DNA of 64,000 nucleotides from Candidatus Nealsonbacteria bacterium (lineage in GTDB: Bacteria; Patescibacteriota; Minisyncoccia; Minisyncoccales; CAZKCU01), in the NCBI GenBank assembly GCA_047456305.1, contig CP179888.1:381307-445306 (forward strand), read 5' to 3'. Below, one piece after another: positions 1-63,415 of the stretch. The number at the start of each line of letters is the position of its first letter. Position 1 is the stretch's first letter. The notes beneath the pieces were generated by a model. The model was not told the DNA's origin. It saw nothing but the letters and a program-made list of their open reading frames with translations, and did no database searches. Made by a program: the position numbers and the translations under genes.

Positions 1-56
1 CGCCGGACGGAACATCGTCAGAAGAAGTCCCACCAAAAGAAACACCATTTGAGCAA

Positions 57-4891: not shown

Positions 4892-4979
4892 CTCATATAA
4901 TTAGTAGACCATTGTACATGGTCTTTCTAAACCATGCCAACCAAACAGATTTAAACAACGCCCAGTCTCAGAGGTTGTT

Positions 4980-5723
4980 TTGACTCTCTTTTTTATTTTT
5001 GGTATAGTTTTCTTATTACTAATTATGGACAAATTTTTTTTAATTCAACTTACTACTAATCTTTATTACCTGACTTTGCTTTTTCCCAAAAAAGAGCCCT
5101 TGAGGTATAAAATAAGAGAATTGGCCGATGACATTTTAGCCGCCCTAATTTCATCTCCCCATCAACATAAATGTGACGAAGCAAGGCCTCGTCACATTAA
5201 CACTGGCGCTGATATTATACAAGAATTGGAAATTCTTGATAGCTTCTTTGAGGTGGCAAAAGCCCAAAACTGGGTAAGTCCGGCTGAAACCTTGAAATTA
5301 CAGCAAGAATATAGTAAGCTAAAAGAGAATTTGAAAACGCAGGTTAATTTTAATAGAAGTTTAGTACCAGCGACCCAAGTTAGAAACGTAACGAAGCAAG
5401 GCCTCGTTAAATTAAGTCCTCGGAGTGAAGGGGATTGCGAGAGGAGCCCCAAAGCTATTTTTGCTGAAAGGAGAGTAGTCAAAGAGGATAAATCCTCTTC
5501 TTCACCCTTCGCTGCGGCTCGGCTAAATGAACGCCAGAAAAAAATCTTGGGAATTTTAAAAGAAAGAGAAAAAGCCCAGGTTTGGGAAATTAAGAAAATT
5601 TTTCCCGAAGTGACCAAAAGAACTCTCCGAAGAGATTTTGAACAATTGCTAAAACAAGGATTTATTGAAAGAATAGGAGAAAAGAATGACACTTTTTACC
5701 AAGTTAAATCCAATTTTGACTAA
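4980..5723 (+). CDS. putative transcriptional regulator with a C-terminal DeoR-type winged HTH; carries repeat insertions
   Basis: The C-terminus NERQKKILGILKEREKAQVWEIKKIFPEVTKRTLRRDFEQLLKQGFIERIG is a DeoR-like wHTH. The likely start is ATG 5025 (MDKFF). The central part is built from GC-rich hairpin repeats. Confidence 0.55.
   Translation: MTLFFIFGIVFLLLIMDKFFLIQLTTNLYYLTLLFPKKEPLRYKIRELADDILAALISSPHQHKCDEARPRHINTGADIIQELEILDSFFEVAKAQNWVSPAETLKLQQEYSKLKENLKTQVNFNRSLVPATQVRNVTKQGLVKLSPRSEGDCERSPKAIFAERRVVKEDKSSSSPFAAARLNERQKKILGILKEREKAQVWEIKKIFPEVTKRTLRRDFEQLLKQGFIERIGEKNDTFYQVKSNFD
5478..5528 (+). repeat. family-A palindromic element, in frame (VKEDKSSSSPFAAARLN)
   Basis: GTCAAAGAGGATAAATCCTCTTCTTCACCCTTCGCTGCGGCTCGGCTAAAT. 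It has the same architecture and reading frame as the copies in murB, recJ and mnmA. Confidence 0.85.
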
Positions 5724-5747
5724 ATAAAGGTAGGACATTATATTATA

Positions 5748-5767
5748 GGTAGGACATATGTCCTACC
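5748..5767. promoter_or_regulatory. perfect 20-bp palindrome (candidate operator or terminator stem)
   Basis: GGTAGGACATATGTCCTACC, with an extra half-site GGTAGGACAT at 5729-5738. A second palindrome, TAGAGACCGGGTCTCTA, lies at 5779-5795. Both sit between the regulator gene and the sigma-factor gene. Confidence 0.5.
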
Positions 5768-5803
5768 CTTACAGTTGTTAGAGACCGGGTCTCTATCTAT
5801 CTT

Positions 5804-6307
5804 ATGGCTAATCAACGGAAAATTTTCAGCAGTATTTATGACAAATATGTAAATAAGATTTACCGTTTTATTTTTATTAAGGTTAGTTCTCAGGAAATAG
5901 CCGAGGATTTATGTTCAGAGACTTTTTTACGGGGTTGGCAGGTTTTTAAAGAAAGGAGAGACATTGAAAATCCGCCGGCCTTTTTATATCAAATTGCCCG
6001 CAATTTGGTTATTGACCATTATCGGGAAAAGGGTAAAGCCAAAATTGTTTCAGCTGAATATTGGGAAGTCACTGATCCTCACCAGAATTTAGAAGAAAAA
6101 TCTCTGTTGGGGTCCGACATCGATAATATCAGAATAGTTTTGGCTAGCCTCCGAGAAGAATATCAGGACGTGATTATTTGGCATTACTTGGATGGGTTAA
6201 CTTTTTCTGAAATGGGTCGGATATTAAACAAATCAGAGAATGCAGTGAGAGTCCAAACCCATCGTGCCTTGAAAGAACTTAGAAAAAAACTTATTCGTGA
6301 GAGCTAA
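5804..6307 (+). CDS. ECF-type RNA polymerase sigma-70 family factor
   Basis: Region 2 (YRFIFIKV...AEDLCSETFLRGW, ARNLVIDHYR) and region 4 (GLTFSEMGRILNKSENAVRVQTHRALKELR). Confidence 0.9.
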   Translation: MANQRKIFSSIYDKYVNKIYRFIFIKVSSQEIAEDLCSETFLRGWQVFKERRDIENPPAFLYQIARNLVIDHYREKGKAKIVSAEYWEVTDPHQNLEEKSLLGSDIDNIRIVLASLREEYQDVIIWHYLDGLTFSEMGRILNKSENAVRVQTHRALKELRKKLIRES

Positions 6308-7219: not shown

Positions 7220-8002
7220 ATGACTGAAGCTGAACTCATTAAAAAAATTCAAGAACTCAAGCAGATTCAACCCAGAAAAGACTGGGTTTTGTTTACTAAA
7301 AGCCAGATTTTAGGAGAAGAACCAAAAATGGACGTGTCCCTATTTTCGTTGGTTGGCAAAATTTTCCCGATGGCGCAAATTTTCTCACCATTTCGTTTCC
7401 TTAATTTTAAAAATTTAAAACCAGTTTTAGTTACCTTAGCTTCTCTATTTATTTTAATATCCGGGGCTTTTATTTTTGCCCAAAATTCTCTACCCGGCGA
7501 TTTACTTTTTCCAGTAAAGAAAATTACTGAAAGGAGCCAGTCAGTTTTTGTCTCTGAGGACAACGTAATAAAATTTGAGTTGGATATTGCAGAGAAACGA
7601 TTAGACGACCTTGCTAAGGTTGCCGAGAAGAACTCAGTGAAGAATTTAGCGCCGGCAATTAACGAATATAAAGAAAGCGTGTCTGATGTGGCAAAGAGTT
7701 TGGCAGTAGAAAATAATAAAGAGGTTGTAAAAGAGATAGTTAGTGGAGTGAAAAAATTAGAAGAGAAAGAGCAGCAAGTGAGAACGCTGGGAGCAGTAAT
7801 AGGAGAAAATGAGGAGTTAGACAAAGCCGTTGCTCAAAAAATGGTAGAAACCTTGGAGATCCTTATTAAGGATTTAGAAGGGAGGTCTTTAACAGAAGAC
7901 CAGCAAGAGGATTTTGCTAAAGCCAAAGAATATTTTGAAGCCGGTGATTATAACCAGGCGCTTATAGAACTTCTGAATTTTGGTCAGGAAAGGGAGGATT
8001 AA
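7220..8002 (+). CDS. anti-sigma-like membrane protein (DUF5667-like)
   Basis: Short N-terminal cytoplasmic segment, one TM helix (PVLVTLASLFILISGAFIF), then a helical extracytoplasmic domain. It lies downstream of the ECF sigma gene. Confidence 0.5.
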   Translation: MTEAELIKKIQELKQIQPRKDWVLFTKSQILGEEPKMDVSLFSLVGKIFPMAQIFSPFRFLNFKNLKPVLVTLASLFILISGAFIFAQNSLPGDLLFPVKKITERSQSVFVSEDNVIKFELDIAEKRLDDLAKVAEKNSVKNLAPAINEYKESVSDVAKSLAVENNKEVVKEIVSGVKKLEEKEQQVRTLGAVIGENEELDKAVAQKMVETLEILIKDLEGRSLTEDQQEDFAKAKEYFEAGDYNQALIELLNFGQERED

Positions 8003-8076
8003 TTTTGCTCAAAATCAATAGATTGAAAATTGGAACGTCGCGAAACTCGTGACTATTACGTAAGGTCGCGAGACAC

Positions 8077-8104
8077 CAAGCACATAACAAAGATTATGTG
8101 CTCG
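8077..8104. repeat. family-B hairpin (GAGCACATAA...TTATGTGCTC)
   Basis: CCAAGCACATAACAAAGATTATGTGCTCGG. Related copies lie at 29306-29332 and, degenerate, inside pgk at 43738-43769. Confidence 0.75.
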
Positions 8105-8158
8105 GATAAATGGTCGGCGCGACAGAAATAAATTATTAATTAATAATTCAGAAAATAA

Positions 8159-28162: not shown

Positions 28163-29068
28163 ATGAGTATTAAAAAACTTTTACCAAGAGTTAAAACGAA
28201 TACTTCTTTAAAAAACTACACTACTTTTAAGATTGGGGGTCGGGCTAAATACTTTTATGTAGCAAAAACAAAAGAGAATTTGGTGAAAGCAGTAAGGGTG
28301 GTAAAGAAAATGAAATTGCCATTTTTTGTTTTGGGAGGAGGCTCAAATTTATTGATTTCTGACAAAGGGTTTAAAGGACTAGTTATAAAATTCGGTCAAC
28401 CGCTTTCTTTATATGTTTCAAAAGGCCTAGAATGGGCAGTTGGTATTCCCGGAACTATTCAGGGAGCAGTTTGGAGTAATGCTGGCGCTTTCAAAAAGTC
28501 AATGAAAGATGTTGTTAAAGAAGTTGAGGTTTTTGATACTAAAACAGGAAAAGTTAAAATTTTTAAAAATAAAGACTGCCGGTTTTCCTACAGAAATAGC
28601 ATTTTCAGAAAGGAAAAAAATTTAATTATTCTTTCGGTAAAAATCAAATCGAAAAAAAGTAATACCAAAAAAATAAAGCAATATTCAGACTATAGAAAAA
28701 AAACTCAACCATTAGAGTTTCCTTCAGCAGGAAGTATTTTTAAGAATCCGAAGAACTTAGTGGCAGGAGAATTATTGGGCGAAGAAGATAAACCTTCTTC
28801 TTCAGCCTTCGCTGCCGCTCGGCTAATTGGCGAAGAAGATAAACCTTCTTCTTCAGCCTTCGCTGCCGCTCGGCTAATTGAAGAATGCGGATTGAAAGGA
28901 AAAAAAATTGGAGAGGTTCAGGTTTCTAAAAAACATGCAAATTTTATTATTAATTTAGGAGATGGAAAGGCAAGAGATGTTAAAAAATTGATAAATTTAA
29001 TAAAAAGAAAAGTGAAAAGTAAATTTGGAGCAAATTTGGAAGAGGAGATTCAATATTTAGGTTTTTAA
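28163..29068 (+). CDS. murB: UDP-N-acetylenolpyruvoylglucosamine reductase MurB (with a 34-aa repeat insertion)
   Basis: LKNYTTFKIGGRAKYF, FFVLGGGSNLLISD, PSAGSIFKNP, IEECGLKGKKIGEVQVSKKHANFIINLG. Confidence 0.93.
   Translation: MSIKKLLPRVKTNTSLKNYTTFKIGGRAKYFYVAKTKENLVKAVRVVKKMKLPFFVLGGGSNLLISDKGFKGLVIKFGQPLSLYVSKGLEWAVGIPGTIQGAVWSNAGAFKKSMKDVVKEVEVFDTKTGKVKIFKNKDCRFSYRNSIFRKEKNLIILSVKIKSKKSNTKKIKQYSDYRKKTQPLEFPSAGSIFKNPKNLVAGELLGEEDKPSSSAFAAARLIGEEDKPSSSAFAAARLIEECGLKGKKIGEVQVSKKHANFIINLGDGKARDVKKLINLIKRKVKSKFGANLEEEIQYLGF
28778..28879 (+). repeat. family-A palindromic element, two perfect tandem 51-bp copies, in frame in murB
   Basis: GGCGAAGAAGATAAACCTTCTTCTTCAGCCTTCGCTGCCGCTCGGCTAATT occurs twice (28778-28828 and 28829-28879). 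Each encodes GEEDKPSSSAFAAARLI. Confidence 0.95.
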
Positions 29069-29140: not shown

Positions 29141-29189
29141 GGAACCGTTTGCTTCGCTCACTGTAATTTGCTCTGCAAATTAAAAAAAA
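29141..29189 (+). repeat. family-C/D element (short form)
   Basis: GGAACCGTTTGCTTCGCTCACTGTAATTTGCTCTGCAAATTAAAAAAAA. It is related to the copies at 33262-33317 (minus strand) and 40284-40424. Confidence 0.7.
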
Positions 29190-29294: not shown

Positions 29295-29305
29295 AATCTT
29301 CTCAG

Positions 29306-29342
29306 CCGAGCACATAAATCTTATGTGCTCGGTTGTTTTTTT
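29306..29342 (+). terminator. intrinsic terminator (family-B hairpin)
   Basis: CCGAGCACATAA-atc-TTATGTGCTCGG is a perfect 12-bp stem, followed by TTGTTTTTTT. Confidence 0.8.
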
Positions 29343-29366
29343 GTATAGATTTGTTAATATTGAATG

Positions 29367-29420
29367 ACGAAGAGAATTTCATTCTCTTCTTTACCTTCGC
29401 TTCCTTCGGAAGCTCGGTGT
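29367..29420 (+). repeat. family-A palindromic element, intergenic copy just upstream of hpf
   Basis: GACGAAGAGAATTTCATTCTCTTCTTTACCTTCGCTTCCTTCGGAAGCTCGGTGT. It artificially extends the hpf ORF at the 5' end. Confidence 0.8.
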
Positions 29421-29867
29421 ATGAAGATTATTATAAAAACGAAAAATATAAAACTAAACCGGCCCCTCAAGGATTATATTGAGGAAAAACTAAACTCTCT
29501 TGAAAAATTTTTAAAAACTTTTCAAAAGAAAATATATTATAATCATTTTTTTGGCAAAGGAAAGCCAAGAATTGAGGCCTGGGTAGAAATTGGGAAGGAA
29601 AGTTTACATCATCGAAAGGGGCCTGTTTTTCGGGCCGAAGTTCAAATGAGATTTCCGGGAATGAGTTTGAGAGCAGAAGCTGTTTCAAAAAATTTAAGAA
29701 CAGCTATAACCGAAGTAAAGGATGAATTACAGAGAGAATTTAAACAATATAAAGAAAAAATAACTTCTTTGGGCAAAAGAAAAACCAGGGCTCTAAAAAA
29801 AGACCTCCGTCTATCTCCTCAGGCGAGGTTTTATAGAAAGGGAAGAATAAGGGAAGAGGGAATATAG
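29421..29867 (+). CDS. hpf: ribosome hibernation-promoting factor / ribosome-associated inhibitor (HPF/RaiA family)
   Basis: MKIIIKTKNIKLNRPLKDYIEEKLNSLEKF... is typical of the family. The ORF-track start at 29364 lies inside a repeat, so ATG 29421 is preferred. Confidence 0.8.
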   Translation: MKIIIKTKNIKLNRPLKDYIEEKLNSLEKFLKTFQKKIYYNHFFGKGKPRIEAWVEIGKESLHHRKGPVFRAEVQMRFPGMSLRAEAVSKNLRTAITEVKDELQREFKQYKEKITSLGKRKTRALKKDLRLSPQARFYRKGRIREEGI

Positions 29868-29890: not shown

Positions 29891-29920
29891 TAAACCCCGT
29901 TAGAGACTAACGGGGTTTAC
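29891..29920. terminator. palindrome TAAACCCCGTTAG-AGA-CTAACGGGGTTTA between convergent genes
   Basis: Perfect hairpin shared by the hpf 3' end and the stop region of the minus-strand ATPase gene. The same arm sequence recurs at 34338-34403. Confidence 0.6.
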
Positions 29921-40283: not shown

Positions 40284-40424
40284 AACCGGTCGCTTTATCG
40301 CTCCCTGTAATTTGCTCGCAATTAAAATAACCGGTTCCCTGCTGTGTGCGAACAGTGGGCAATACAAACCAGTTGGGCTAACGCCCTCCTTGTAATTGCT
40401 CCGCAATTAAAAAAAATAAAAAAG
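40284..40424 (+). repeat. two adjacent family-C/D elements
   Basis: AACCGGTCGCTTTATCGCTCCCTGTAATTTGCTCGCAATTAAAAT followed by AACCGGTTCCCTGCTGTGTGCGAACAGTGGGCAA...CTTGTAATTGCTCCGCAATTAAAAAAAA. Confidence 0.75.
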
Positions 40425-41723: not shown

Positions 41724-41851
41724 TAAAAAAATGAATAGTCAAAGAGAACTCCGTTCTCTTTTCCATCTTCGTTTTAATAAATTAAAACTCGATGAATAAA
41801 AACTCGAGTTATAGTCAAAGAAGGTAAACCTTCTTTTTCATCTTCGTTTTT
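41724..41851 (+). repeat. tandem duplication of a hairpin unit related to family A
   Basis: ATAGTCAAAGAGAACTCCGTTCTCTTTTCCATCTTCGTTTT...AAAACTCGATGAATAA and ATAGTCAAAGAAGGTAAACCTTCTTTTTCATCTTCGTTTTT...AAAACTCGATGAATAA. Confidence 0.8.
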
Positions 41852-43477
41852 ATGAATAAAAACTCGATGAATAACGATATAATTTTTTTTGCTGAAACCA
41901 CTTTTCGTAATATCAGGAAAAAATTCGGCATAAAAACCGACGATAGACGTCGGCATATTTATGTTGTTGGGAAAACCGGTATGGGTAAAACAGTGATGAT
42001 GGAAAATATGGCAATCCAGGATATAAAGCAGGGCAAGGGAATTGCTTTTATTGATCCCCACGGAGAGGCTGCTGAAAACCTTTTAAATTTTATTCCTTCT
42101 GATCGAATTAATGATGTTATCTATTTTAATCCGGCTGATTTAAATTATCCCATCGCTTTTAATGTTATGGAAAAAGTTGATTTAGAGCATAGACATTTGG
42201 CGGCCTCGGGCCTAATGGGGGTTTTTAAAAAAATCTGGCCCGATGTCTGGTCAGCCAGAATGGAATATATTTTGAATAATTCCATTTTAGCTTTACTTGA
42301 ATATCCGGGCTCAACCCTGCTTGGAGTAAACCGAATGCTGGCTGATCCCGATTATCGAAAAAAAGTGGTGGAGAGGATCACTGACCCGGTGGTTAAAGCT
42401 TTTTGGATTACTGAATTTGCTCGTTACACCCAGAGATACGAAGTTGAGGCAACAGCTGCCATCCAGAATAAAGTTGGTCAGTTTATTTCCGCCCCTTTAA
42501 TTAGGAATATTATTGGTCAGGTTCAATCTTCGATTGATATGAGGAAAGTAATGGATGATGGCAAAATCTTAATTGCTAATATATCTAAAGGAAAGGTGGG
42601 AGAGGATAATTCCTTGCTTTTGGGAGCTCTTTTGATTACCAAAGTGCAGTTAGCTGCGATGTCAAGAGTAGATATGCCTGAAGAGCAGAGACGAGATTTC
42701 TTTTTATATGTTGATGAATTTCAGAACTTTGCCACTGAATCTTTTGTCAATATCTTATCTGAGGCAAGGAAATATAGGTTGTCTTTAGTTTTAGGGCATC
42801 AATACATTGCTCAGATGGAAGAAAAGGTAAGAGATGCTGTTTTCGGCAACATTGGAACAATAGTTTCTTTTAGAGTTGGAGCTGAAGATGCTGAATATCT
42901 GGAAAAAGAATTTGTTCCTGAATTTACAGCTACTGACTTAGTTAATCTTGGAAAATATAATATCTATTTGAAATTAATGATTGATGGAATAGCCGGCAGA
43001 CCTTTCTCGGCTGAAACCTTGCCTCCAATGTTAAAACCGGAGAAATCGAATCGAGAGAAGATTATTAAAGTTTCCCGCGAAAGATATGGGACTCCTCGGC
43101 AAGTTGTTGAGGAAAAAATTAAGCGCTGGATAGGAACTTTAGAATTTCCGGTTAGTCCCCAGTCCGTCTCCCCGGTTCTTTATGATGCCAAATGTTCTCT
43201 CTGCGGAAAATGGACCAAGGTTGTTTTTCCTCCTGATGGGGTCCGGCCGGTTTATTGTAAACCCTGCCGAAAAAAAATGGAAAGAGAGAAGGAACAAAGA
43301 GAAAATGGAGTTATTTCCCTGAAAGAGGCAACTAAAAAAGAGCCTGTTTCTTTTTTGCCCTCAAAAAAAACTTTCGGGCGAGAAAAAACTGAAAAAGAGA
43401 AAAAAAGAAAAACCGTTAACTTAGAAGAATTAAAAAAAACCCTGGAAGAATCCCTGAAAAAAAGAAAAAAGCAATAA
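41852..43477 (+). CDS. TraD/VirD4-like (type IV coupling protein / HerA-FtsK superfamily) P-loop ATPase with a C-terminal zinc ribbon
   Basis: Walker A VVGKTGMGKT, Walker B FFLYVDEFQNF, LVLGHQY, and C-terminal CSLCGKWTKVVFPPDGVRPVYCKPCRKK. Confidence 0.7.
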   Translation: MNKNSMNNDIIFFAETTFRNIRKKFGIKTDDRRRHIYVVGKTGMGKTVMMENMAIQDIKQGKGIAFIDPHGEAAENLLNFIPSDRINDVIYFNPADLNYPIAFNVMEKVDLEHRHLAASGLMGVFKKIWPDVWSARMEYILNNSILALLEYPGSTLLGVNRMLADPDYRKKVVERITDPVVKAFWITEFARYTQRYEVEATAAIQNKVGQFISAPLIRNIIGQVQSSIDMRKVMDDGKILIANISKGKVGEDNSLLLGALLITKVQLAAMSRVDMPEEQRRDFFLYVDEFQNFATESFVNILSEARKYRLSLVLGHQYIAQMEEKVRDAVFGNIGTIVSFRVGAEDAEYLEKEFVPEFTATDLVNLGKYNIYLKLMIDGIAGRPFSAETLPPMLKPEKSNREKIIKVSRERYGTPRQVVEEKIKRWIGTLEFPVSPQSVSPVLYDAKCSLCGKWTKVVFPPDGVRPVYCKPCRKKMEREKEQRENGVISLKEATKKEPVSFLPSKKTFGREKTEKEKKRKTVNLEELKKTLEESLKKRKKQ

Positions 43478-44696: not shown

Positions 44697-45932
44697 ATGG
44701 AAATAAAAAATCTTAAAAAAGCAGCTGAGCGAATTTTAAAAGCGATAAAAAAGAAGGAAAAAATTATTATTTATGGTGATGCTGATTTAGATGGAGCAAC
44801 CTCGGTAATTATTTTAAAAGAAAGTATTCAAAATTTAGGCGGAGAGGTTTCGGCAATTTATTTTCCCGATCGAGAAAAAGAAGGATATGGGATAAATAAA
44901 ACAGCCCTTGATTTTTTAAAAACCATTAGTCCTGCTTTGTTGGTTGCCTTAGATTGTGGAATTGGGAATTTTGAGGAAGTGAAAATAGCTAAAACTTTAG
45001 GTTTTGAAGTAATAATTATTGACCATCATCAAATCTTAGATAAGTTACCTAAAGCCCAAATTATTGTTGATCCTAAACAAAAAGGAGATAAATATCCATT
45101 TAAAGGGCTAGCTACCGTAGGAATAATTTTTAGGCTTTCCCGACTTCTTTTAAAAGAAAAAATGTCAGAAGTAATGAGAAAAAATTTCTTGGAATTAGTG
45201 GCTTTGGGCACTATCGCCGATATGATGCCAGAAGAAAATGAAAATCAGCTTTTTATAACGGAGGGCTTAGAGTCATTAGAAAATTCCTGGCGACCAGGAA
45301 TTAAAGTATTTTTAAATAGCATCCCTTTTACTTTCCAAGAGAAAAAATATCCGAATTTCCGTCAGAAAATCTCTAAAATAATTTCTATTTTAAATGTCAG
45401 GGATATTGAGAATAAAATGCCAGCTTCATTTAGAGTTTTGGCAAGTTCCTCTTTGAAAGATGCAAAAAAGATTATCGAAAAACTTTTAAAGAAAAATGAA
45501 CTAAAAAAAGAAAAAATAAAGGAAATGATTCAGGAGGTCGAAGAAGATTTATTTTCTTCTTCCCCCTTCGCTGGCGCTCGGGAAACGGGCGATGAAGCTA
45601 AAGCTTCATCTTCACCCTTCGCTAACGCTCGGGTAAATGAAGAAATTATTTTTAAAGGAAAATCTAATTGGGAATTAATTTTACTCAGTCAGGTAGCTTC
45701 AATAATTTGTAATAAATATAAAAAACCTACTTTTCTTTTCAAAGAGGGAGAAACAAAGAGCCAGGGAACGGTAAGAATACCCAAGGGATTAGATGGAGTG
45801 AAGGCTATGATGAGTTGCCGTCAACTTCTGGAAACTTATGGAGGTCATCCTGCAGCTGCAGGTTTTTCATTAGAAAATGAGAATTTAGAAAAATTTAGAG
45901 AATGTCTAAATAAATATTTTAAAAAAATATGA
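44697..45932 (+). CDS. DHH/DHHA1 phosphoesterase, RecJ-like
   Basis: IIIYGDADLDGATS, VIIIDHH, GGHPAAAGF. Confidence 0.8.
   Translation: MEIKNLKKAAERILKAIKKKEKIIIYGDADLDGATSVIILKESIQNLGGEVSAIYFPDREKEGYGINKTALDFLKTISPALLVALDCGIGNFEEVKIAKTLGFEVIIIDHHQILDKLPKAQIIVDPKQKGDKYPFKGLATVGIIFRLSRLLLKEKMSEVMRKNFLELVALGTIADMMPEENENQLFITEGLESLENSWRPGIKVFLNSIPFTFQEKKYPNFRQKISKIISILNVRDIENKMPASFRVLASSSLKDAKKIIEKLLKKNELKKEKIKEMIQEVEEDLFSSSPFAGARETGDEAKASSSPFANARVNEEIIFKGKSNWELILLSQVASIICNKYKKPTFLFKEGETKSQGTVRIPKGLDGVKAMMSCRQLLETYGGHPAAAGFSLENENLEKFRECLNKYFKKI
45537..45638 (+). repeat. two adjacent family-A palindromic elements, in frame in the recJ-like gene
   Basis: GTCGAAGAAGATTTATTTTCTTCTTCCCCCTTCGCTGGCGCTCGGGAAAC and GGGCGATGAAGCTAAAGCTTCATCTTCACCCTTCGCTAACGCTCGGGTAAAT. 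They encode VEEDLFSSSPFAGARETGDEAKASSSPFANARVN. Confidence 0.9.
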
Positions 45933-46457: not shown

Positions 46458-46460
46458 GAT

Positions 46461-46892
46461 GTCCCAGTAAGTCTGTAAGCCGAATTCTGTCTTGCCCTCC
46501 CAACTTTTGCCACGGGATTTCAAAAAAATCAGCAAATTCTTTGGCAAAAGTTAGGAGGGTGAAGTGATTATCTATCTAGGCCTGAGATTGCTCCCAGGCT
46601 CAAGCGAACTACTTTGAACCCTTTCAACTTTGCGTAAAAAGTTGCGGGGCTTTGTTCTTGCTCTTGGGCAGGAATTTAACCGTTTCACTCCCGGAGTTAC
46701 CTCCAGGATTCATCCAATTATTGGATGCCTCTTGTCTTACGATTTGAGGCGTCACTGTTCGCATCCCTCGTCTCGCGACGTACGGGTATTGCCCGTTACC
46801 ATTTTAACCAGTTTTAAAACTGGTAAGAGTTCGGACTTTCCTCCCCCTTTTTCTGATTAGAAAAAGAGAGCAATCACTCAACTTACAAGGAC
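46461..46892 (-). ncRNA. rnpB: RNase P RNA (bacterial type)
   Basis: The minus strand contains GGGGGAGGAAAGTCCGAACTC (the universally conserved GAGGAAAGUCC region) near the 5' end and ACAGAATTCGGCTTACAGAC (the ACAGAAnnCGGCUUA region) near the 3' end. P1 pairs GTCCTTGTAAGT at the 5' end with ACTTACTGGGAC at the 3' end. Confidence 0.9.
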
Positions 46893-52374: not shown

Positions 52375-54150
52375 ATGCTTATCACAGAAGGTAGAGCTAA
52401 CGGTAAATATATTTTAATCGTTGTTGTTTTAACTGCCATTGTTGGCGGAGGAGTTTGGTTATTAGCGAAACGAGACGTTCGTTTTACTGAATTTTCTGAG
52501 ATAAATAAACCAGAAGAAAATGGAATGGATGTTAATAATGAGATTAATATCCATGAATATCCGAGTGATAGCGAGCAATTTAGAAATCTGACTATAAAAT
52601 TTGTGAGAGAGATAGCTGAGAATTACTTTGATGAACAACTGATAAAATACCCGGAGGAATTAGGAATTAGAGGTAATTGGGTTCCTTATATAACCATATA
52701 TCATCAGGGAGAAATAAAAGGGCATGGGAAAGGAGAAAATGAAATATTATCTTTTGCTTTAGCTGAAGCAACAAAAGTTGCTTTTAGTGATGAGAGGTGC
52801 GAAAACTTAACTAAAAAAGATCTTAAGGATGTAATATTTTTGGTCAAATTTTTAATTCCTCCAAATCAGTTTTCTTTTGTAGAATATGACGGGAAAGGGA
52901 AAGAACTTGTTGGAGATTTAGTAGTAATCCGAAATTTAGACAAAGAGTTAATTCGTCAGAAAATTGAACAAGGAAAAGAATTTTTATACAGGGTAATGAA
53001 TAAAAATGAGTACGGTTTCTATAAAAAATATGATGCTCTAAATGATGATTTTGAAGATAGACTGCATACTGTATATTCTGCTTCAATTATATATACTTTT
53101 TTATACATTTATGATTTGGAAAAGGACGAGAAAATTTTAGAATACATACCCGATTGGGGCAACTTTCTTTTTTTCATGCAAAACAAAGATGAGGAAGATG
53201 AAAGGTACGGCGCCTTTCATTATTCTTACTATTTAGATAGCAAGGAACGAGAAAAGAAATTTGTAGTTGGGACAAGTGCATTAACTATATTTACATTATT
53301 AAGATTATATGATTTAACTAACGACTCAAAATACTTGGAATCTGCGAAATTGGCTGGTGATTGGTTAACTACAATGCAGAAACCAGATGGAAGCATAAGG
53401 TCCTATGTAAGATATTCAGATGGGCAATGGGTGTACGGTGATAAAGAATCCCTTCTTTACAACGGCCAGGTGCTTTCTGCTCTTTCTAAGCTTTTTCAAG
53501 CTACCGGAGATAAAAAGTATTACGATACTGCTGAAGGAATTGCAAAACTGTTCGTAGAGAAATATGAAAAAGAAAAAGGTTATATTAAAGGTGAATATCG
53601 AGAGAAAAATCCGATATCAAATTCTTGGGTAGTAATGTCATTAATGGATTTTTATAGAGTAAATCAAGCTGATTATTACAAAAACATAATTTTTGAACTA
53701 AGTGAAAAAATTTTAGAAAATCAAAAAAATGACATGAATAACCTTTTACATTATGGTGGCTGGGGTGAAGTGTATTCAACAAGTGGAATTGGTTGGATAA
53801 GTGAAGTGATGGTGGAAACATATATATTCTGCAAAGAATTCACCCCTACACCAAATTTTGGTGTGGGGGCAAGCAAAGAAGATTGTAATAAGTATAAAGA
53901 TTCTGCGATAAAGGCAATGAGATTACTTATTCAGAATACCTATTCAGAAGAAAACACCTTTTTTCTTAAAAATCCAAAAAGAGCAATGGGAGGTGTTTTT
54001 TGGAATGAACAAAATAAATATGTAAGAACTGATTCGGTATGTCATGCTTTAAATGGTTATGTCAGAATAATGAATGATTTAGAGGATGGATTATTACTTT
54101 CGGTTCCAGAGAAATCATTTGAAGCAATTTTAAATGAGCTTAAAAAATAA
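52375..54150 (+). CDS. hypothetical membrane-anchored protein with a probable (alpha/alpha)6-toroid-like repeat domain
   Basis: N-terminal TM helix. Repeated helical hairpins such as LTIFTLLRLYDLTNDSKYLESAKLAGDWLTTMQKPDGS. No confident family. Confidence 0.4.
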   Translation: MLITEGRANGKYILIVVVLTAIVGGGVWLLAKRDVRFTEFSEINKPEENGMDVNNEINIHEYPSDSEQFRNLTIKFVREIAENYFDEQLIKYPEELGIRGNWVPYITIYHQGEIKGHGKGENEILSFALAEATKVAFSDERCENLTKKDLKDVIFLVKFLIPPNQFSFVEYDGKGKELVGDLVVIRNLDKELIRQKIEQGKEFLYRVMNKNEYGFYKKYDALNDDFEDRLHTVYSASIIYTFLYIYDLEKDEKILEYIPDWGNFLFFMQNKDEEDERYGAFHYSYYLDSKEREKKFVVGTSALTIFTLLRLYDLTNDSKYLESAKLAGDWLTTMQKPDGSIRSYVRYSDGQWVYGDKESLLYNGQVLSALSKLFQATGDKKYYDTAEGIAKLFVEKYEKEKGYIKGEYREKNPISNSWVVMSLMDFYRVNQADYYKNIIFELSEKILENQKNDMNNLLHYGGWGEVYSTSGIGWISEVMVETYIFCKEFTPTPNFGVGASKEDCNKYKDSAIKAMRLLIQNTYSEENTFFLKNPKRAMGGVFWNEQNKYVRTDSVCHALNGYVRIMNDLEDGLLLSVPEKSFEAILNELKK

Positions 54151-54207
54151 AGATATAGCGAATAACAGGGTGGGGCTATGTCCAGAATACGAGTAGTTAA
54201 GCAAGAA

Positions 54208-54231
54208 GCCCATCGCTGGGTGATTTTTTTT
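54208..54231 (+). terminator. intrinsic terminator
   Basis: GCCCA-tcgc-TGGGT followed by T8. It shares the 15-nt string AAGCCCATCGCTGGG with the terminator at 2523. Confidence 0.5.
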
Positions 54232-54365
54232 CGGCCTTGACTTTTTCCTGAATTGTTATTAAGATATAAAATCACGAGAGACGAAGGAGGACGGTATGGG
54301 AAGTGCCTTAAAAAGTGAATATGGATTAAAACAAAAAGACAGAATTAAAAAAAAGGAGGTAACAA

Positions 54366-56318
54366 ATGAAAAGGAAGACAGCTTTTCAAAAGATCATTGA
54401 CAGTCATCTGGTAAAGATCCTTCCTGACGGAGGGATGGTTTTGAAGCTAGACTGGGTTTGGGGACATGAGATTACCACACCGAACGCCATAATAGACATG
54501 AAAGTACGAGGATGTGAAGCCGTTTTCGATCCTAACAAGATTAAGATGATGATTGATCATGTTAACCCGCCCAAAGACACAGCTTCGGCTATTCAAGCCG
54601 AAATCGTCCGTAAATGGAGCGAAGCCCACGGTATCGAGTTTCTCGATGTCGGACGTAACGGTGTATGCCACGCTATTATTCCGGAAAAGGGATGGATACT
54701 CCCTGGTCAGATTGGTATTATGGGCGACAGTCACACCTGCACACATAGCGCTTTCTGCGCTTTCACGGCAGGAGTTGGTACGACAGAACTCGAAAACGGT
54801 ATTATTACTGGTCTTTGGATCTGTCCGTCACAGAAAGTCATCCGCGTTAATTTCACTGGCAAATTGCCGGCAAATGTTTTTGCAAAGGATCTTATTCTGG
54901 CGCTCATTGCGAAGATCGGCGTCAAGGGTGCGACTAACGCAGTGCTCGAATTCGATGGCCCTGTAATTACAGACATGACCATGGAAGGCAGAATGACAAT
55001 CGCCAACATGTCAGTAGAAGCTGGAGCCACATCAGGCATGATGATGGTTGATAAAAAGACCATAGATTATCTGTATCCGATTTTAGATAAAATGTTCCAT
55101 GATGGTTCCCTGGGAGATATAAATCTTGAAGAATGGGACAGTGATTCGGATGCGGAGTATGATCGGGTTATCGAGATTGATGTTTCTAATATGGTTCCAG
55201 TCATTACGGATAAATATTCACCTGGCGATGTTGTGAAGGTTTCCGAACTTGTCGGCAAACGGGTCAATCAGGTTTATATCGGTTCATGCACGAATGGCAG
55301 AATCGAAGATCTGAGGATAGTGGCCAGCATTTTCCGTCAGGTAGGCGCCAGGGTAGCGGACAATTTACGTTGTATAGTTGTTCCCGCCACCCAGTACATC
55401 TACGAGAGGGCGCTTCAGGAAGGAATAATCGAGACTTTCGTAAAAGCTGGATGTTTCGTAAGCGGACCAACCTGTGGTGCATGCCTTGGTATGAGCTGCG
55501 GTGTTATTGCTCCCGGAGAGGTATGCGTTTCCACTACGAACCGCAATTTTCCCGGACGTATGGGCAAAGGCGGAATGGTGCATTTAACATCTCCGGCAAC
55601 AGCAGCCCTTACTGCTCTTAAGGGTGAGATCGCTGAACCGACAATTAAGATGTGCGAGCGTACACTCAATGATTGTTCCGTCATTGTTCCACCTAAAAGG
55701 GAGGCTATTCAGTTGTCGGGATGGGGAAAAACGGAATCAAAACGACCCGAATACAGCAACCTTTTAAGCCTTATCGGCGGAGGACAGCATAAGGATTTTT
55801 CAGGAAAGGTGTTCTATTTACCCGTTGACAATGTTGATACCGACCAGATTATTCCAGCCAAGTATTTGACTGAGACAAAAAAAGAAGAGTTTGGCAAACA
55901 CTGCCTTGAGGATGCTTCGATATCTTCCGAGGACAGACCAAAGCTTTTCCAGTCACAGATAATCGTAGCTGGCGATAATTTCGGTTGTGGCTCTTCAAGG
56001 GAGCACGCACCATGGGCATTAGAAGGAGTCGGCATCAGGTGTGTCATTGCTCCGAGCTTTGCGCGCATCTTTGAGAACAATATGTTCGCGAATGGGCTTC
56101 TTTGTATCACCTTTCCGAAGGAAACGATAGAATTTCTTTTTGATGAAAAGCCTGAAGAACTCTCGGTCGACTGGGAAAAAGGCATTGTGAAGTGGGATAC
56201 CAATGGTGACGCCAGCTTCGAGATTTCAGACTACCAAAAAGAGCTAATCAAGAAAGGTGGAAGCGTCGGCATTATGCTTAAACTCGCCGCAGATCTGCAG
56301 GCAGAAGGTAAAATATAG
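54366..56318 (+). CDS. fused aconitase-family dehydratase, large + small subunit (LeuC-LeuD / homoaconitase-like)
   Basis: N-terminal part: GHEITTPNAI, MGDSHTCTHSAFCAF, GSCTNGRIEDL, GPTCGACLGM, STTNRNFPGRMG. C-terminal part: NVDTDQIIPAKYL, GDNFGCGSSREHAPWAL. A strong SD (AAGGAGGT) lies 8 nt upstream. Confidence 0.88.
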   Translation: MKRKTAFQKIIDSHLVKILPDGGMVLKLDWVWGHEITTPNAIIDMKVRGCEAVFDPNKIKMMIDHVNPPKDTASAIQAEIVRKWSEAHGIEFLDVGRNGVCHAIIPEKGWILPGQIGIMGDSHTCTHSAFCAFTAGVGTTELENGIITGLWICPSQKVIRVNFTGKLPANVFAKDLILALIAKIGVKGATNAVLEFDGPVITDMTMEGRMTIANMSVEAGATSGMMMVDKKTIDYLYPILDKMFHDGSLGDINLEEWDSDSDAEYDRVIEIDVSNMVPVITDKYSPGDVVKVSELVGKRVNQVYIGSCTNGRIEDLRIVASIFRQVGARVADNLRCIVVPATQYIYERALQEGIIETFVKAGCFVSGPTCGACLGMSCGVIAPGEVCVSTTNRNFPGRMGKGGMVHLTSPATAALTALKGEIAEPTIKMCERTLNDCSVIVPPKREAIQLSGWGKTESKRPEYSNLLSLIGGGQHKDFSGKVFYLPVDNVDTDQIIPAKYLTETKKEEFGKHCLEDASISSEDRPKLFQSQIIVAGDNFGCGSSREHAPWALEGVGIRCVIAPSFARIFENNMFANGLLCITFPKETIEFLFDEKPEELSVDWEKGIVKWDTNGDASFEISDYQKELIKKGGSVGIMLKLAADLQAEGKI

Positions 56319-56331
56319 AAAGGAGAAAGAT

Positions 56332-57489
56332 ATGATAGAAAAAAGAATTGCATTAGTACTGGGAGACGGTTCGGGGCCAGAAATGATGAAATTTGCATGT
56401 GCAATTGCCATCGAAGCGGCCAAGAAAGACGGGATAGAGATTGTTTTTGAAGAAACACCGATGGGATGGAATGCCTACGAAAAGTATGGCGATACCCTTC
56501 CGCAGGAATCATTTAAGAGAGCGGTTGATATCGGCATCATATTTTTCGGTGGCGTTGGCGACCCGAAATTCGACAATACCATCGGCGCGAAAAAACCAGA
56601 GATGAAACCCGAAGCAAGAGCATTGCTCTCTTTGAGGAGTAATATGGGACTTCTTCTAAACTTCCGTCCCATGATCTACTACAAAGCGCTCGCTCATCTC
56701 GCGAACGTGAAACCCGAAACGATACCGGACGAAGGAATCCAGCAGATCTGGATACGCTTTCTTCTCGAAGATAGTTACTTTGGTAATCAGGATTTCATCG
56801 ACGATATCCCAGCTGAAGTGAATAAGAAGCTTGGAATAAAGCTGAAGAAAGAGATAACCGGCAATGAGGAAATCGTGACCGATATCGCTTACTTTCGCAA
56901 GAGTACGGTCGAAAAATATCTGAGATCGGCCTTCTCTTATGCCCGGGATATAAAACTGCCTCTCATTTCGATCGACAAAGCTAACGTCATGGCGCGGTAT
57001 GATTTCTGGAGGAAGGTTGCGACAAAAATTGGAAGAGACGAATTTCCTGATGTTCCACTTATTCATCAGTATGTTGATTCAGCTAACGCTCTTCTCTTTA
57101 CCCCCGCGAAACTTCACGGCGTGATTGCATGCGGGAACGAACATGGCGATATTCTTTCTGATGGCGCGGCTGTTGCTCTCGGAAGTATGGGAATGATGTG
57201 TTCATCGGCCATCAATCCTGATACTGGCGCGGCCATGTTCGAAAGCGGTGCCGGAACAGCTCCTACACTAGCCGGACAGGATAAAGCGAATCCTTTAGGT
57301 CGTATTCTCACTGCCGCCATGATGCTCAGGCACATCGGTGCAGTGAATGGCGCAAGTGCGATTGAAACAGCAGTTAATAAGGTCTTGCAGGACGGCTATC
57401 GCACGAGTGATCTTTTCTGCGCTACCGACGACCCTAAAAAACTTCTAGGAACTTCGGAGATGGGAGAAATAGTTCTTTCTTATATGTGA
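56332..57489 (+). CDS. isocitrate/isopropylmalate dehydrogenase-family protein (LeuB-like, divergent)
   Basis: IALVLGDGSGPEMM, FFGGVGDPKFD, NEHGDILSDGAAVALGSMGM, DKANPLGRILTAAMML. The start ATG 56332 is preceded by AAGGAG (the ORF-track start at 56257 overlaps the upstream gene). Confidence 0.82.
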   Translation: MIEKRIALVLGDGSGPEMMKFACAIAIEAAKKDGIEIVFEETPMGWNAYEKYGDTLPQESFKRAVDIGIIFFGGVGDPKFDNTIGAKKPEMKPEARALLSLRSNMGLLLNFRPMIYYKALAHLANVKPETIPDEGIQQIWIRFLLEDSYFGNQDFIDDIPAEVNKKLGIKLKKEITGNEEIVTDIAYFRKSTVEKYLRSAFSYARDIKLPLISIDKANVMARYDFWRKVATKIGRDEFPDVPLIHQYVDSANALLFTPAKLHGVIACGNEHGDILSDGAAVALGSMGMMCSSAINPDTGAAMFESGAGTAPTLAGQDKANPLGRILTAAMMLRHIGAVNGASAIETAVNKVLQDGYRTSDLFCATDDPKKLLGTSEMGEIVLSYM

Positions 57490-57513
57490 ATCTCATTAAA
57501 CGATGATGTGAAA

Positions 57514-57550
57514 GGCGCTAACAATTCAATGTTAGCGCCATTTCTTTTTT
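57514..57550 (+). terminator. intrinsic terminator after the LeuB-like gene
   Basis: GGCGCTAACA-attcaa-TGTTAGCGCC is a 10-bp stem, followed by ATTTCTTTTTT. Confidence 0.8.
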
Positions 57551-57850
57551 ATTGACTAGAGTTGCTTTGTAATAATTCTGTTGATTATTGTAAAATTAAC
57601 TTGGGATATTGGATTATTTCTAACCAGTTCATTTTTCTAAAATCGTCTAATAATCCTAAACGAACAGAATTATGCTCGGTTCTTGTGACCGAGCCGCCTC
57701 AATTTATCGCCAAGCCCGCCCAAGTTTTTGGAAAAAAATTTAGGTGGGCAAAAGGGTGGTTTTTTAAAGCTGTTTAGGTTCATATAGTATAAACCTGGGC
57801 CAGTATAATTTTTTGACTTTTTTTACAGATATAATATAATATAAGGTATT

Positions 57851-60228: not shown

Positions 60229-60248
60229 TACAGAATATTTTTTCACTT

Positions 60249-60304
60249 ACCCGAGCCGCAGGCGAAGGGCGAAGGGTGAAGAAAAGGACGAAGTCCTCTT
60301 CGCC
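60249..60304 (-). repeat. family-A palindromic element, intergenic, reverse orientation
   Basis: Plus strand reads ACCCGAGCCGCAGGCGAAGGGCGAAGGGTGAAGAAAAGGACGAAGTCCTCTTCGCC, the reverse complement of the hairpin + CTTCGC...GGCTCGGGT architecture. Confidence 0.8.
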
Positions 60305-60475
60305 TTTCCAATATAGGTTTTGAAATTGTCCAGTCATACTGGAGTCCCGGCTCGCGAGCTTCGCTCGCGGGCTTTTAAAATAAGTAAAAATTTGTAATAA
60401 TGATTAGACGAACTTATGTGAGAAGAAATTAAAAAAAATGACTAGTACTTTGTGATTTATTTGTAAGATAAACTC

Positions 60476-62096: not shown

Positions 62097-63415
62097 AAAA
62101 TTTAAGTAAAAGGAAAATTGTGGTTGCAATGTCTGGTGGGATAGATAGTTTCGTGGCGGCAACCCTTTTGAAAAGAGTTGGAGTCGATGAACTTCGTTCA
62201 TCTTCACGCACGAGCTCGTTAGAGCGAGTAAGAAAGAATTTTAATTCTTTCGGCTTCGCTAACGCTCGCGTTTTTGTCGATGAACTTCGTTCATCTTCAC
62301 GCTTCGCTAACGCTCGCGTTTTTGTCGATGAACTTCGTTCATCTTCACGCTTCGCTAACGCTCGCGTTTTTGATGTGGTGGGAGTTTTTATGAAACTTAC
62401 TGATCTGCCAAGGTTTAAAGAAAATGAAATGAGAGCTAAAAAAGTTGCTAAAATTCTGGGGATTCCGCTTTTAGTTTTAGATTTAAGAAGGGAATTTAAA
62501 GAAAGAGTTATTAATTTGTTTTTAAAAGAATATAAATTAGGACTAACTCCTAACCCTTGCATAGTCTGTAACAAAGAAATAAAATTTGGATTATTATTAG
62601 AAAAAGCTCTTTCTTTGAATGCAGACTGTATAGCTACTGGTCACTATGCAAGAATTCGAAAATTCGCTGTGTGTGAACAGTGGGCAAATTCGAAACGGAT
62701 TCGTTATTCGTTGATGACTGCTAAAGACAAAGAGAAAGACCAGTCTTATTTTTTATGGCAACTTAATCAAAAGCAATTAAAACATATTTTATTTCCCATC
62801 GGAGATTACACTAAAACTCAAGTTAGAATTATATCAAAAAAATTTAAATTGCCTGTTTTGAAAATTCCAGAATCTCAGGAAATTTGTTTTATTAAGACAA
62901 CTATAAATGATTTTTTAAAGAAATATCTCAAACCAAAACCCGGCCAAATTATTTACTCAACACCCAAGGTTAAGTATCGTGTAATTGGGCGACATCAAGG
63001 ATTAGCCTTTTATACTATTGGACAGCGAAAGGGGATAAAACTTCCCGGAGGACCATATTGGGTTTTGGATAAAGATTTGAAAAAGAATGCTTTAATTGTT
63101 ACCAAGAACGAAAAGGACTTATATAAAAAGGAATTGATTGCCAAGAAGGTTAACTGGATTTCTGGACTCCAACCCACCCTCCGCCCTCCCGCTCGCCAGA
63201 GGCGAGCGGGCCCCTGCCCCAAATTGCCATTAAAAATAAAGGCAAAAATTCGCTATCGTCACGAACCTGCTTCAGCCGTAATTACCCGAAGTTTAAAGTC
63301 TAAAGTTAGTTTAAGGTTTACTCAGCCCCAGCGGGCAATTACTCCTGGCCAGTCAGTAGTTTTTTACAAAGGTCAGGAAGTCTTGGGCGGAGGAGTAATT
63401 AGTGAGTCCTATTAA
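62093..63415 (+). CDS. mnmA: tRNA-specific 2-thiouridylase MnmA (about 80 aa longer than usual because of repeat insertions)
   Basis: PP-loop VVAMSGGIDSFVAA, TPNPCIVCNKEIKF, ATGHYAR, KDQSYFLW, ITPGQSVVFY...LGGGVI. Confidence 0.92.
   Translation: MKNLSKRKIVVAMSGGIDSFVAATLLKRVGVDELRSSSRTSSLERVRKNFNSFGFANARVFVDELRSSSRFANARVFVDELRSSSRFANARVFDVVGVFMKLTDLPRFKENEMRAKKVAKILGIPLLVLDLRREFKERVINLFLKEYKLGLTPNPCIVCNKEIKFGLLLEKALSLNADCIATGHYARIRKFAVCEQWANSKRIRYSLMTAKDKEKDQSYFLWQLNQKQLKHILFPIGDYTKTQVRIISKKFKLPVLKIPESQEICFIKTTINDFLKKYLKPKPGQIIYSTPKVKYRVIGRHQGLAFYTIGQRKGIKLPGGPYWVLDKDLKKNALIVTKNEKDLYKKELIAKKVNWISGLQPTLRPPARQRRAGPCPKLPLKIKAKIRYRHEPASAVITRSLKSKVSLRFTQPQRAITPGQSVVFYKGQEVLGGGVISESY
62183..62371 (+). 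repeat. three tandem family-A elements in frame in mnmA (the first carries a nested 45-nt insertion)
   Basis: GTCGATGAACTTCGTTCATCTTCACGCTTCGCTAACGCTCGCGTTTTT occurs at 62276-62323 and 62324-62371. Copy 1 (62183-62275) is interrupted by ACGAGCTCGTTAGAGCGAGTAAGAAAGAATTTTAATTCTTTCGG. Confidence 0.95.
62666..62687 (+). repeat. family-C core inside mnmA (in frame, AVCEQWAN)
   Basis: GCTGTGTGTGAACAGTGGGCAA. The same 22-mer, with 1-2 differences, occurs at 40341-40362 and on the reverse strand at 33274-33295. Confidence 0.8.

Follow-up and report, generated by a model that had tools for sequence, protein, structure and literature searches.

In a DNA stretch of 64,000 nucleotides from Candidatus Nealsonbacteria bacterium (contig CP179888.1, positions 381,307 to 445,306; hereafter the window, which is the whole stretch analysed), an open reading frame (ORF 44697..45932) encoding a DHH/DHHA1 (RecJ-like) phosphoesterase carries two adjacent repeats whose stems differ in sequence while their pairing is kept. 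The question raised by this locus is what is being maintained: an mRNA structure, a peptide or the DNA itself. The best explanation, to which we assign a probability of about 0.6, is that the recJ repeats derive from a miniature mobile DNA element that is non-autonomous, depends on its hairpins for propagation and resembles Rickettsia palindromic elements (RPE), repetitive extragenic palindromes (REP) and repeats derived from IS200/IS605. Insertion polymorphism, site selectivity, tandem growth and the covariation of two hairpins are established by the comparisons reported below.

In the RecJ-like protein, the DHH domain spans residues 22-172 and the DHHA1 domain residues 318-410 (Pfam), and the insert, residues ~284-315, is located between them. 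At the DNA level (45537-45635), it consists of two tandem in-frame units of 51 and 48 nt, followed by a native flank:

45537..45587, + strand: recJ unit 1, 51 nt, in frame; covariance model 65.9 bits, E 1.4e-17
45588..45635, + strand: recJ unit 2, 48 nt; clean insertion relative to orthologues; covariance model 75.2 bits
45636..45644, + strand: native target-like flank AATGAAGAA, kept in empty orthologous sites; fits the downstream logo TTGAAGA

Unit 1 is composed of GTC, a first hairpin H1 (45540-45559/62), the linker TTC, a second hairpin H2 (45563-45583; CCCC-TTC-GC-TGGC-GC-TC-GGGA) and AACG. Its H1 is formed by GAAGAAGA (45540-45547) pairing with TCTTCTTC (45555-45562) or, in the register of the family, with TTTTCTTC (45552-45559), one G·T included. 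Unit 2 is composed of GGC, H1 (45591-45610; GATGAAGC-TAAA-GCTTCATC), in which GATGAAGC (45591-45598) pairs with GCTTCATC (45603-45610), the linker TTC, H2 (45614-45634; ACCC-TTC-GC-TAAC-GC-TC-GGGT) and A. Both copies read, in the frame of ORF 44697..45932, ...EEDLFSSSPFAGARETGDEAKASSSPFANARVNEE... The initial annotation had described the sequence at 45537-45638 and its in-frame placement exactly. It had also proposed that a conserved tail follows the stem, and such a tail is indeed present in both copies (H1, then TTC-NCCC-TTCGCT-NNC-GCTCGGG); it is, however, not a plain tail, since it folds as the second covarying hairpin, H2.

For the family as a whole, the unit consensus reads G(G/T)C, H1, TTC(A), H2 and TA, over 45-60 nt, with a G+C content of ~50% in the element versus 35% in the genome. 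Folding of each copy yielded an H1 of 7-9 bp, with a conserved outer stem of 5 bp (GA[A/T]GA/TC[T/A]TC) and a variable inner stem and loop, and an H2 in which an internal loop (5' UUC, 3' UC) separates an outer stem of 3-4 bp from an inner stem of 2-8 bp. The H2 outer stem takes the forms ACCC/GGGU, ACGC/GCGU, AGCC/GGCU and CAUC/GAUG in these folds. While in the copies called 'family A' the H2 inner stem is only GC-NNNN-GC, it reaches 6-8 bp in others (CTTCC-TTCG-GGAAG at 29366, TTTTAAT..ATTAAAA at 41.7 kb, TCCCGC..GCGGGA in other genomes), and the CTTCG...CTCGG which flanks it is retained in long and short variants alike. With DNA parameters, the same two hairpins form on either strand, with z-scores down to -5.3. 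A separate H2 variant, CC-TC-AGC-TGAA-GCT-TC-GG, has a symmetric internal loop.

The recJ copies, together with those in murB, mnmA and the regulator gene and upstream of hpf, were initially offered as direct evidence that the hairpin is the selected feature. The recJ pair alone is insufficient, but the whole family shows covariation. When 511 kb of low-GC Patescibacteria loci were searched with a covariance model (R1), 177 matches reached E≤0.001. Since a first equal-length MAFFT alignment (A1) put the hairpins with 3-nt loops out of register, it was replaced by motif-anchored extraction and by the alignment A3. Among 58 distinct copies, anchored on conserved motifs with the register fixed, 26 have A-T and 31 have T-A at pair 3 of H1, and only one is mismatched there (the extraction pattern admitted all nine combinations at this position); pair 6 is G-C in 14 and A-T in 42; pair 7 is G-C in 26, C-G in 15, A-T in 8 and T-A in 2. 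Similarly, pair 3 of the H2 outer stem is C-G in 43 copies, G-C in 8, and A-T and T-A in one copy each. In A3 (55 distinct copies), 92.5% of the cells are paired versus 79.1% after shuffling, with a covariation score of 0.283 versus 0.082; none of 500 shuffles attained the observed pairing or score, and slid registers are 35-50% paired. An alignment of 145 distinct copies (A4), made with the covariance model and therefore leaning toward structure, gave 93.7% versus 76.6% and a score of 0.389 versus 0.122, again with 0/500 shuffles attaining the observed values and with slid registers 40-66% paired. In a structure-blind mutual-information scan with average product correction, the top seven column pairs are the seven variable helix pairs.

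The hairpin covariation is real. The proposal that stem sequences differ while pairing is kept holds on a larger and independently gathered set, on which the covariation is seen with A3, A4 and mutual information alike, and the stems are not mere purine-rich low-complexity sequence, as their pairing exceeds that of shuffles and pair 3 of H1 is A-T 26 times versus T-A 31 times. Further variants follow the same rule in the H2 outer stem (CCC/GGG, CGC/GCG, CAC/GTG, CTC/GAG, GCC/GGC) and inner stem (TCCCGC/GCGGGA, CTTCC/GGAAG, TTTTAT/ATAAAA). The unpaired segments TTCGC, GCTCGG, TCTTCA, CTTCG and CTCGG are strongly conserved over many metagenome-assembled genomes (MAGs) and subfamilies.

Comparison with relatives indicates how these units arose. 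The closest recJ orthologues (~80-96% identity) are without insert, their native DNA reading ..CTT GAA GAA CTG ATA ATA GAA ACA|AAT GAA GAA ATT.., and the empty site GAA ACA|AAT GAA GAA is found in three related loci (L115, L117, L120). Relative to these, recJ unit 2 adds 48 nt cleanly between GAA ACG and AAT GAA GAA, with no duplication. Solo H1 remnants occupy the recJ site in L116 and L118, and L119 contains a degenerate 2×48-nt array in which the H2 outer stem has co-varied to CCU/AGG, with changed amino acids. In murB orthologues (70-93% identity), 0, 1 or 2 copies are present at one site, which is empty in L124 (GGT TAT TTA|ATA GAA GAA TGC). Neither intergenic copy found at 41.7 kb of the window has a counterpart in L120 or L124, which are syntenic relatives, and the covariance model, run with filters off, detected no copy in the 34.5 kb total of these two close relatives. 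Judged from these alignments, the elements are insertions which would have invaded this genome recently. Because the orthologous sites in close relatives are empty, selection most likely acts on the propagation of the element itself and not on a host function, so that the hairpin, initially seen as the selected feature, is maintained as a paired structure but probably to the benefit of the element.

In the window, run with filters off, the covariance model detected 14 copies, 13 on the plus strand and 1 on the minus strand, with E-values from 1e-16 to 1e-20 and plus-strand starts at 5478; 28778, 28829; 29366; 41738, 41814; 45537, 45588; 62183, 62232, 62276 and 62324. The element makes up ~1% of the stretch, and the motif CCCTTCGCTNNCGCTCGGG has 8 matches, all on the plus strand, versus 0.10 expected. 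All further copies listed in the initial annotation (murB 28778/28829, mnmA 62183-62369, the regulator gene 5478, upstream of hpf 29366) were located. Besides the recJ units, the copies are:

5478..5526, + strand: single copy, in frame in a HTH_DeoR-type regulator ORF, 4980..5723 (..VKEDKSSSSPFAAARLNE..)
28778..28877, + strand: two tandem copies (51-nt period), in frame within the MurB_C domain of murB, ORF 28163..29068
29366..29421, + strand: copy upstream of an hpf-like gene, long-H2 variant CTTCC-TTCG-GGAAG; abuts the likely ATG (29421)
41738-41796 and 41814-41871, + strand: two divergent AT-rich intergenic copies, the second of which ends on the ATG of a TrwB/TraG-like gene (41869)
60247..60304, - strand: the only minus-strand copy, intergenic, with an internal CTTCGCC duplication
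62183..62369, + strand: in-frame mnmA array with four units repeating every 48 nt, of which the first is truncated or rearranged

The mnmA array sits between the PP-loop motif (SGGIDS) and the remainder of the HUP domain. Its rearranged first unit (62183-62271) contains H1, ACGC and then ACGAGCTCGTTAGAGCGAGT, which resembles an inverted H2 fragment, followed by a unit with a different H1 (GAAAGAAT/ATTCTTTC), the whole being still in frame. The spacer upstream of the trwB-like gene, which holds two AT-rich elements in the window, is only 9 nt long in L120, and in L124 (10750-10920) it contains a different GC-rich, apparently structured 130-nt segment (..GCTTCGGAGAACCGCAGAATTTC..CCGCCTTCGGCGGAACC..). 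Among MurB orthologues, P0195 and P0226 carry other lineage-specific in-frame insertions at different positions (NRASEGSEDEDENEVLIAS; CQMSNVKCQNSKVEAGAGVLL), and the alignment contains a further insertion inside one element, SSSATERAKLSEGRKERIFFDFAAARL; these insertions suggest additional in-frame element families.

Outside the window, 114 loci were obtained by scanning one genome per species for the pattern. Around half of them were chance matches in high-GC genomes without H1 and were removed by their GC content and a hairpin test. The remaining loci belong to low-GC MAGs labelled, as recorded, Candidatus Nealsonbacteria, Parcubacteria, Paceibacter normanii, Paceibacterota and some Saccharibacteria, and near-identical units occur in unrelated genes of different MAGs. 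In one relative, the hrcA-grpE-dnaK operon contains 8 copies in 2.4 kb. At L103 5170-5290 (hrcA ORF 4950..5816, - strand), a tandem in-frame repeat, SPMSPAKRDGIKKRTQFS ×2, reads GGCGAAGAGAACTGCGTTCTCTTCTTTATTCCATCCCGCTTTGCGGGACTCATA on the opposite strand; this variant belongs to the same superfamily, but is antisense in orientation and differs in its H2. Viral contigs gave only 3 pattern-driven chance matches (23-29 bits) and thus no phage link, and no autonomous or cargo-bearing long element surfaced in a crude regular-expression search for solo H1/H2 and long elements.

The site at which the element inserts was deduced from the flanks of 105 non-tandem copies. Insertion occurs immediately 5' of NNTGAAGA, often after xTA: the downstream flank is T-T-G-A-A-G-A (G in 68 and A in 33 copies at +3, A in 91 at +4, G in 51 at +6) and the upstream flank G-T-A (42, 52 and 61 copies, respectively). 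Three empty sites, ACA^AATGAAGAA, TTA^ATAGAAGAA and ^ATGAATAAC, fit this target. The downstream motif mimics the 5' end of the element, G(G/T)CGA(A/T)GA, and the upstream flank its 3' end. Position -1 upstream correlates with the penultimate base of the element, and the upstream dinucleotide equals its terminal dinucleotide in 42/105 copies versus 20.5±3.3 after shuffling (maximum 32 in 2000 shuffles). As the element's own 5' end is a target, head-to-tail arrays arise, with periods of 45, 46, 48 and 51 nt; GTA|G is generated at the junctions between array units, and GTAG is found in only 13/105 isolated copies. A strict target-site duplication is not supported, since the H1 type (GAAGA/GATGA) does not predict the flank, which is TGAAG regardless, and since the recJ site is without duplication; only a partial 2-nt excess of flank identity remained.

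Such junctions could also have been produced without any enzyme, by replication stalling at hairpins, template switching or slippage, homologous or microhomology recombination and DNA uptake between strains, as this mechanism itself yields microhomology on both sides. Both flanks indeed mimic the junction between units (upstream xTA the 3' end, downstream NNTGAAGA the 5' end), and the head-to-tail arrays, the solo-H1 remnants of L116 and L118 and the fact that no enzyme was found in the window ORFs or in a motif scan of 883 ORFs are consistent with this scenario. The strongly conserved unpaired TTCGC, GCTCGG and TCTTCA, however, suggest that a protein recognises the sequence specifically, template switching alone would hardly generate hundreds of precisely bounded single copies at dispersed sites, and the junction of recJ unit 2 has no usable upstream microhomology (ACA versus GTA). 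Spread without an enzyme is thus considered unlikely.

The relation of the element to coding frames was analysed on the 150 best copies. Eighty-eight are inside open frames, 58 in sense and 30 in antisense orientation, and are always open; nine end within a few nucleotides of the start codon of an ORF of ≥80 aa, and the rest are intergenic. In ORFs of ≥150 aa, 36 of the 38 sense copies use the frame reading ..SSSPFAxAR... One reading of this bias is that the peptide (E/D)(E)DKSSSSPFAxAR(V/L) is the selected module, as a flexible linker or modification site, with incidental pairing. The shared frame speaks for it all the more as a second sense frame is also open, as does the last codon of the murB unit, which is Leu (CTA/CTG) and not the usual GTA, restoring the native ..L-IEECG. 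Nevertheless, the target phase, NNT GAA GAx, accounts for the frame bias: because the target is NNTGAAGA, most genic copies are located at a GAA-GAx codon boundary, in a Ser-rich stop-free frame (..EEDKSSSSPFAxAR..). Furthermore, intergenic and antisense copies retain the structure, compensatory changes alter the residues (EEDK..SSS versus DEAK..ASS versus DELR..SS), and synonymous sites are fixed in the stems and in TTCGCT/GCTCGG, whereas variation is free at the 'x' codon and in the loops. Selection of the peptide is consequently very improbable. The inserted peptide would rather be tolerated by the host protein in linkers and loops.

The strand on which the hairpins are most stable bears on a further alternative. 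On the plus strand, the non-Watson-Crick cells are A·C or C·A in 66 cases versus G·T in 14, and whole subfamilies have a fixed C·A or A·C. This excess of A·C among mismatches implies that the complementary strand folds better, and the complement is more stable in 127/139 copies with RNA parameters and in 133/139 with DNA parameters (Wilcoxon p ~1e-22), which argues against an mRNA structure. The pairing initially reported on the coding strand is thus present there, but this strand is not the one that folds best.

A cis-acting mRNA structure selected for a host function, such as a regulator of translation or stability or an RNA thermometer, would agree with the covariation of two helices, with the mostly sense orientation of the genic copies (58/88) and with the 9 copies ending near a start codon (among them hpf 29421 and trwB-like 41869), where the long-H2 variants sequester GGAAG/GGGA-like purines 8-11 nt before the ATG. 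The mismatches tolerated on the sense strand are, however, A·C (66) and not G·U (14), with the antisense strand folding better in >90% of copies. In addition, 30/88 genic copies are antisense, the sites within proteins are unrelated (DHH linker, MurB_C, MnmA HUP, HrcA), orthologous sites are empty in close relatives and no Rfam family was matched, all of which makes a host mRNA structure quite improbable.

For the mobile DNA element, the following mechanism can be proposed. The element inserts as DNA at selected sites, directly 5' of NNTGAAGA, and the covariation reflects selection for both hairpins in propagating copies. The hairpins would function while the DNA is single-stranded, probably in the complement of the coding strand, and be recognised by a trans-acting enzyme; the invariance of the unpaired segments (TCTTCA, CTTCG, CTCGG) across genomes likewise argues for recognition by a protein. 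The outer helices and the unpaired TTC may play the part that guide/cleavage-site pairings have in IS200/IS605- and REP/RAYT-type (HUH Y1) systems. More tentatively, the outer helices of H1 and H2 (GA[A/T]GA/TC[T/A]TC, NCCC/GGGN) and the invariant TTC could be, instead of plain structural stems, the guide and cleavage-site pairings of a base-pair-guided system inserting single-stranded DNA, which would be the smallest such element known (~45 nt), run by an enzyme of the Candidate Phyla Radiation (CPR) or enzyme-free, and would recognise its target xTA^NNTGAAGA through complementarity with the element's own sequence. This reading, although doubtful, would explain why target and element end co-vary by subfamily (GAG with GAG, GTA with GTA).

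Several observations weigh against a hairpin-dependent mobile element of this type. No transposase, HUH or RAYT gene was found by Pfam among the main ORFs of the window (a few ORFs at 48.7-52.2 kb were judged only via the matching genes called in relative L120), and a HUH...Y motif scan of 883 ORFs in related loci revealed no mobilising enzyme; the enzyme, and with it the single-strand mechanism, is therefore putative. Textbook IS608 insertions have a target on the 5' side only and leave no duplication, and both the target preference found here, which is strong downstream, and the weak 2-nt identity of the flanks depart from this geometry. Moreover, mutational bias could account for part of the A·C excess. 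The element does not keep strictly to one strand, as seen from the 58 sense and 30 antisense genic copies, and the window, with 6 independent plus loci versus 1 minus locus, shows no significant bias. If positive GC skew marks the leading strand, the better-folding strand is located on the leading-strand template, opposite to IS608; GC skew was nonetheless discarded as an indicator of replication strand, since local skew just follows the coding strand and gene orientation and is uninformative. Finally, the murB site is filled across orthologues of 70-93% identity, which implies that some copies are old and could have gained host roles.

Among known systems, the closest in genomic behaviour are the Rickettsia palindromic elements, which are hairpin repeats found in frame in housekeeping genes (PMC10969869). 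Like RPEs, the present element is a multi-copy hairpin repeat located both between genes and in frame in unrelated housekeeping genes, adding a conserved peptide compatible with function: its in-frame copies are in DHH/DHHA1, MurB, MnmA and DeoR-type genes, with the same frame in 36/38, as read from the frames with predicted translation. Unlike RPEs (~100-150 bp, in Rickettsia, Alphaproteobacteria), it measures 45-60 nt and is thus two to three times smaller, resides in Patescibacteria (here Candidatus Nealsonbacteria), forms in-frame tandem arrays and has a defined target motif, so that size and host set it apart from RPE-1..10.

With REP/REPIN-RAYT systems, it shares short imperfect palindromes, covarying stems, a high copy number, sometimes inverted pairs and a presumed recognition of hairpins in single-stranded DNA. 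REP palindromes can have a conserved GTAG (or CGTC) tetranucleotide at their 5' foot; here GTA|G precedes H1 in arrays and in 13/105 single copies. REPs are, however, extragenic by definition and usually consist of one 20-40-nt hairpin, with a RAYT gene flanked by REPs, whereas here 88/150 copies, hence most, are within open reading frames, two different hairpins are present and no RAYT was found in the window or in the 883 ORFs. Inverted pairs were observed in L006 5453-5550, L087 2335-2410, L077, L084, L020 and L031, where H1 on one strand runs into the reverse complement of a full element (H1-TTCACC|TACCCGAGC...), which resembles REPIN/BIME arrangements.

The IS200/IS605 family and its ORF-less derivatives, the PATEs, have in common with the element two different subterminal hairpins (H1 and H2 are distinct in sequence and architecture and both covary), and the absence of terminal inverted repeats; the helices at the feet of the hairpins could be guide/cleavage-site pairings. 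Insertion is also beside a short target, and recJ shows a simple insertion without clear duplication, but viewed on the coding strand the main target signal is 3' of the insertion point, and 2-nt flank identity is in excess (42/105 versus 20.5). No described member of the family approaches the small size of the unit, and TnpA was not found in the window or the scanned loci. In IS200/IS605 elements, orientation follows the replication strand, with the active strand on the lagging-strand template, whereas the strand bias seen here is only partial. Among modular tandem repeats, pneumococcal BOX (45-nt boxB) and mycobacterial MIRU also comprise 45-53-nt units of varying number, co-oriented with neighbouring genes and with open frames, but they are intergenic (between operon genes for MIRU), unrelated in sequence and without two-hairpin covariation or insertion into conserved domains. 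A classical MITE (miniature inverted-repeat transposable element) was rejected, as inverted repeats are lacking at the ends (G(G/T)CGA..., ...CGGGTA) and no consistent target-site duplication exists. At the gathering threshold, Rfam identified only the RNase P RNA and three tRNAs in the whole window, and at E≤10 the best matches on the elements were ≤20 bits, far below gathering; resemblances by eye to hammerhead, pistol, twister and bulge-helix-bulge motifs were dropped. In the literature searched, no description of such elements in CPR was found, and the family is apparently undescribed.

Genomes of Patescibacteria (CPR) are thought to be highly streamlined and poor in mobile DNA. The elements described here are nonetheless located in frame inside essential genes, namely murB, mnmA and the RecJ-like phosphoesterase gene, as well as hrcA in a relative, and would thus be a second, independent case, in a very different lineage, of the RPE phenomenon by which proteins are remodelled by in-frame mobile hairpins. 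Annotation and binning are affected, since orthologues come to vary in length, assemblies break at the repeats and peptides are falsely taken for 'low-complexity' sequence, and the element is a sensitive strain marker. Its small size, two covarying hairpins and readable target may offer a tractable route to the enzyme moving such elements and, if recognition relies on base pairing, could point to a new activity of guided DNA insertion.

An intein constitutes another type of selfish in-frame insertion in the window: at 29907-32120 (- strand), it splits an ORF for a BcrAD_BadFG-type ATPase, with Intein_splicing and LAGLIDADG_3 (homing endonuclease) domains between residues ~250-544 (Pfam). What look like intrinsic terminators, with perfect GC-rich hairpins and T runs after them (CGCGAGC-TTC-GCTCGCG; CCGAGCACATAAATCTTATGTGCTCGG and TTGTTTTTTT), are located at 60340-60375 and 29300-29340, the former containing CTTCGCTCG, reminiscent of an H2 core without inner stem. 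The bacterial class A RNase P RNA (46460-46889, - strand) is 430 nt long versus a 367-position model (119 bits, gathering 100) and has apparent extra sequence. G+C content rises to 0.44-0.48, versus ~0.35, at 8001-10000 and 54001-58000; these stretches encode a 667-aa PG_binding_1 protein and a pair formed by aconitase and an isocitrate/isopropylmalate dehydrogenase, and were possibly acquired horizontally. Lastly, a separate short repeat (family D15), CTC(A/C)CTGTAATTTGCTC(T)GCAA(A)TTAAAA with the internal palindrome TAATTTGC..GCAAATTA, occurs between genes or at gene ends (29157-29186, 40301-40330 and 40386-40415), where it could serve as an operator or promoter element or represent yet another family of repeats.

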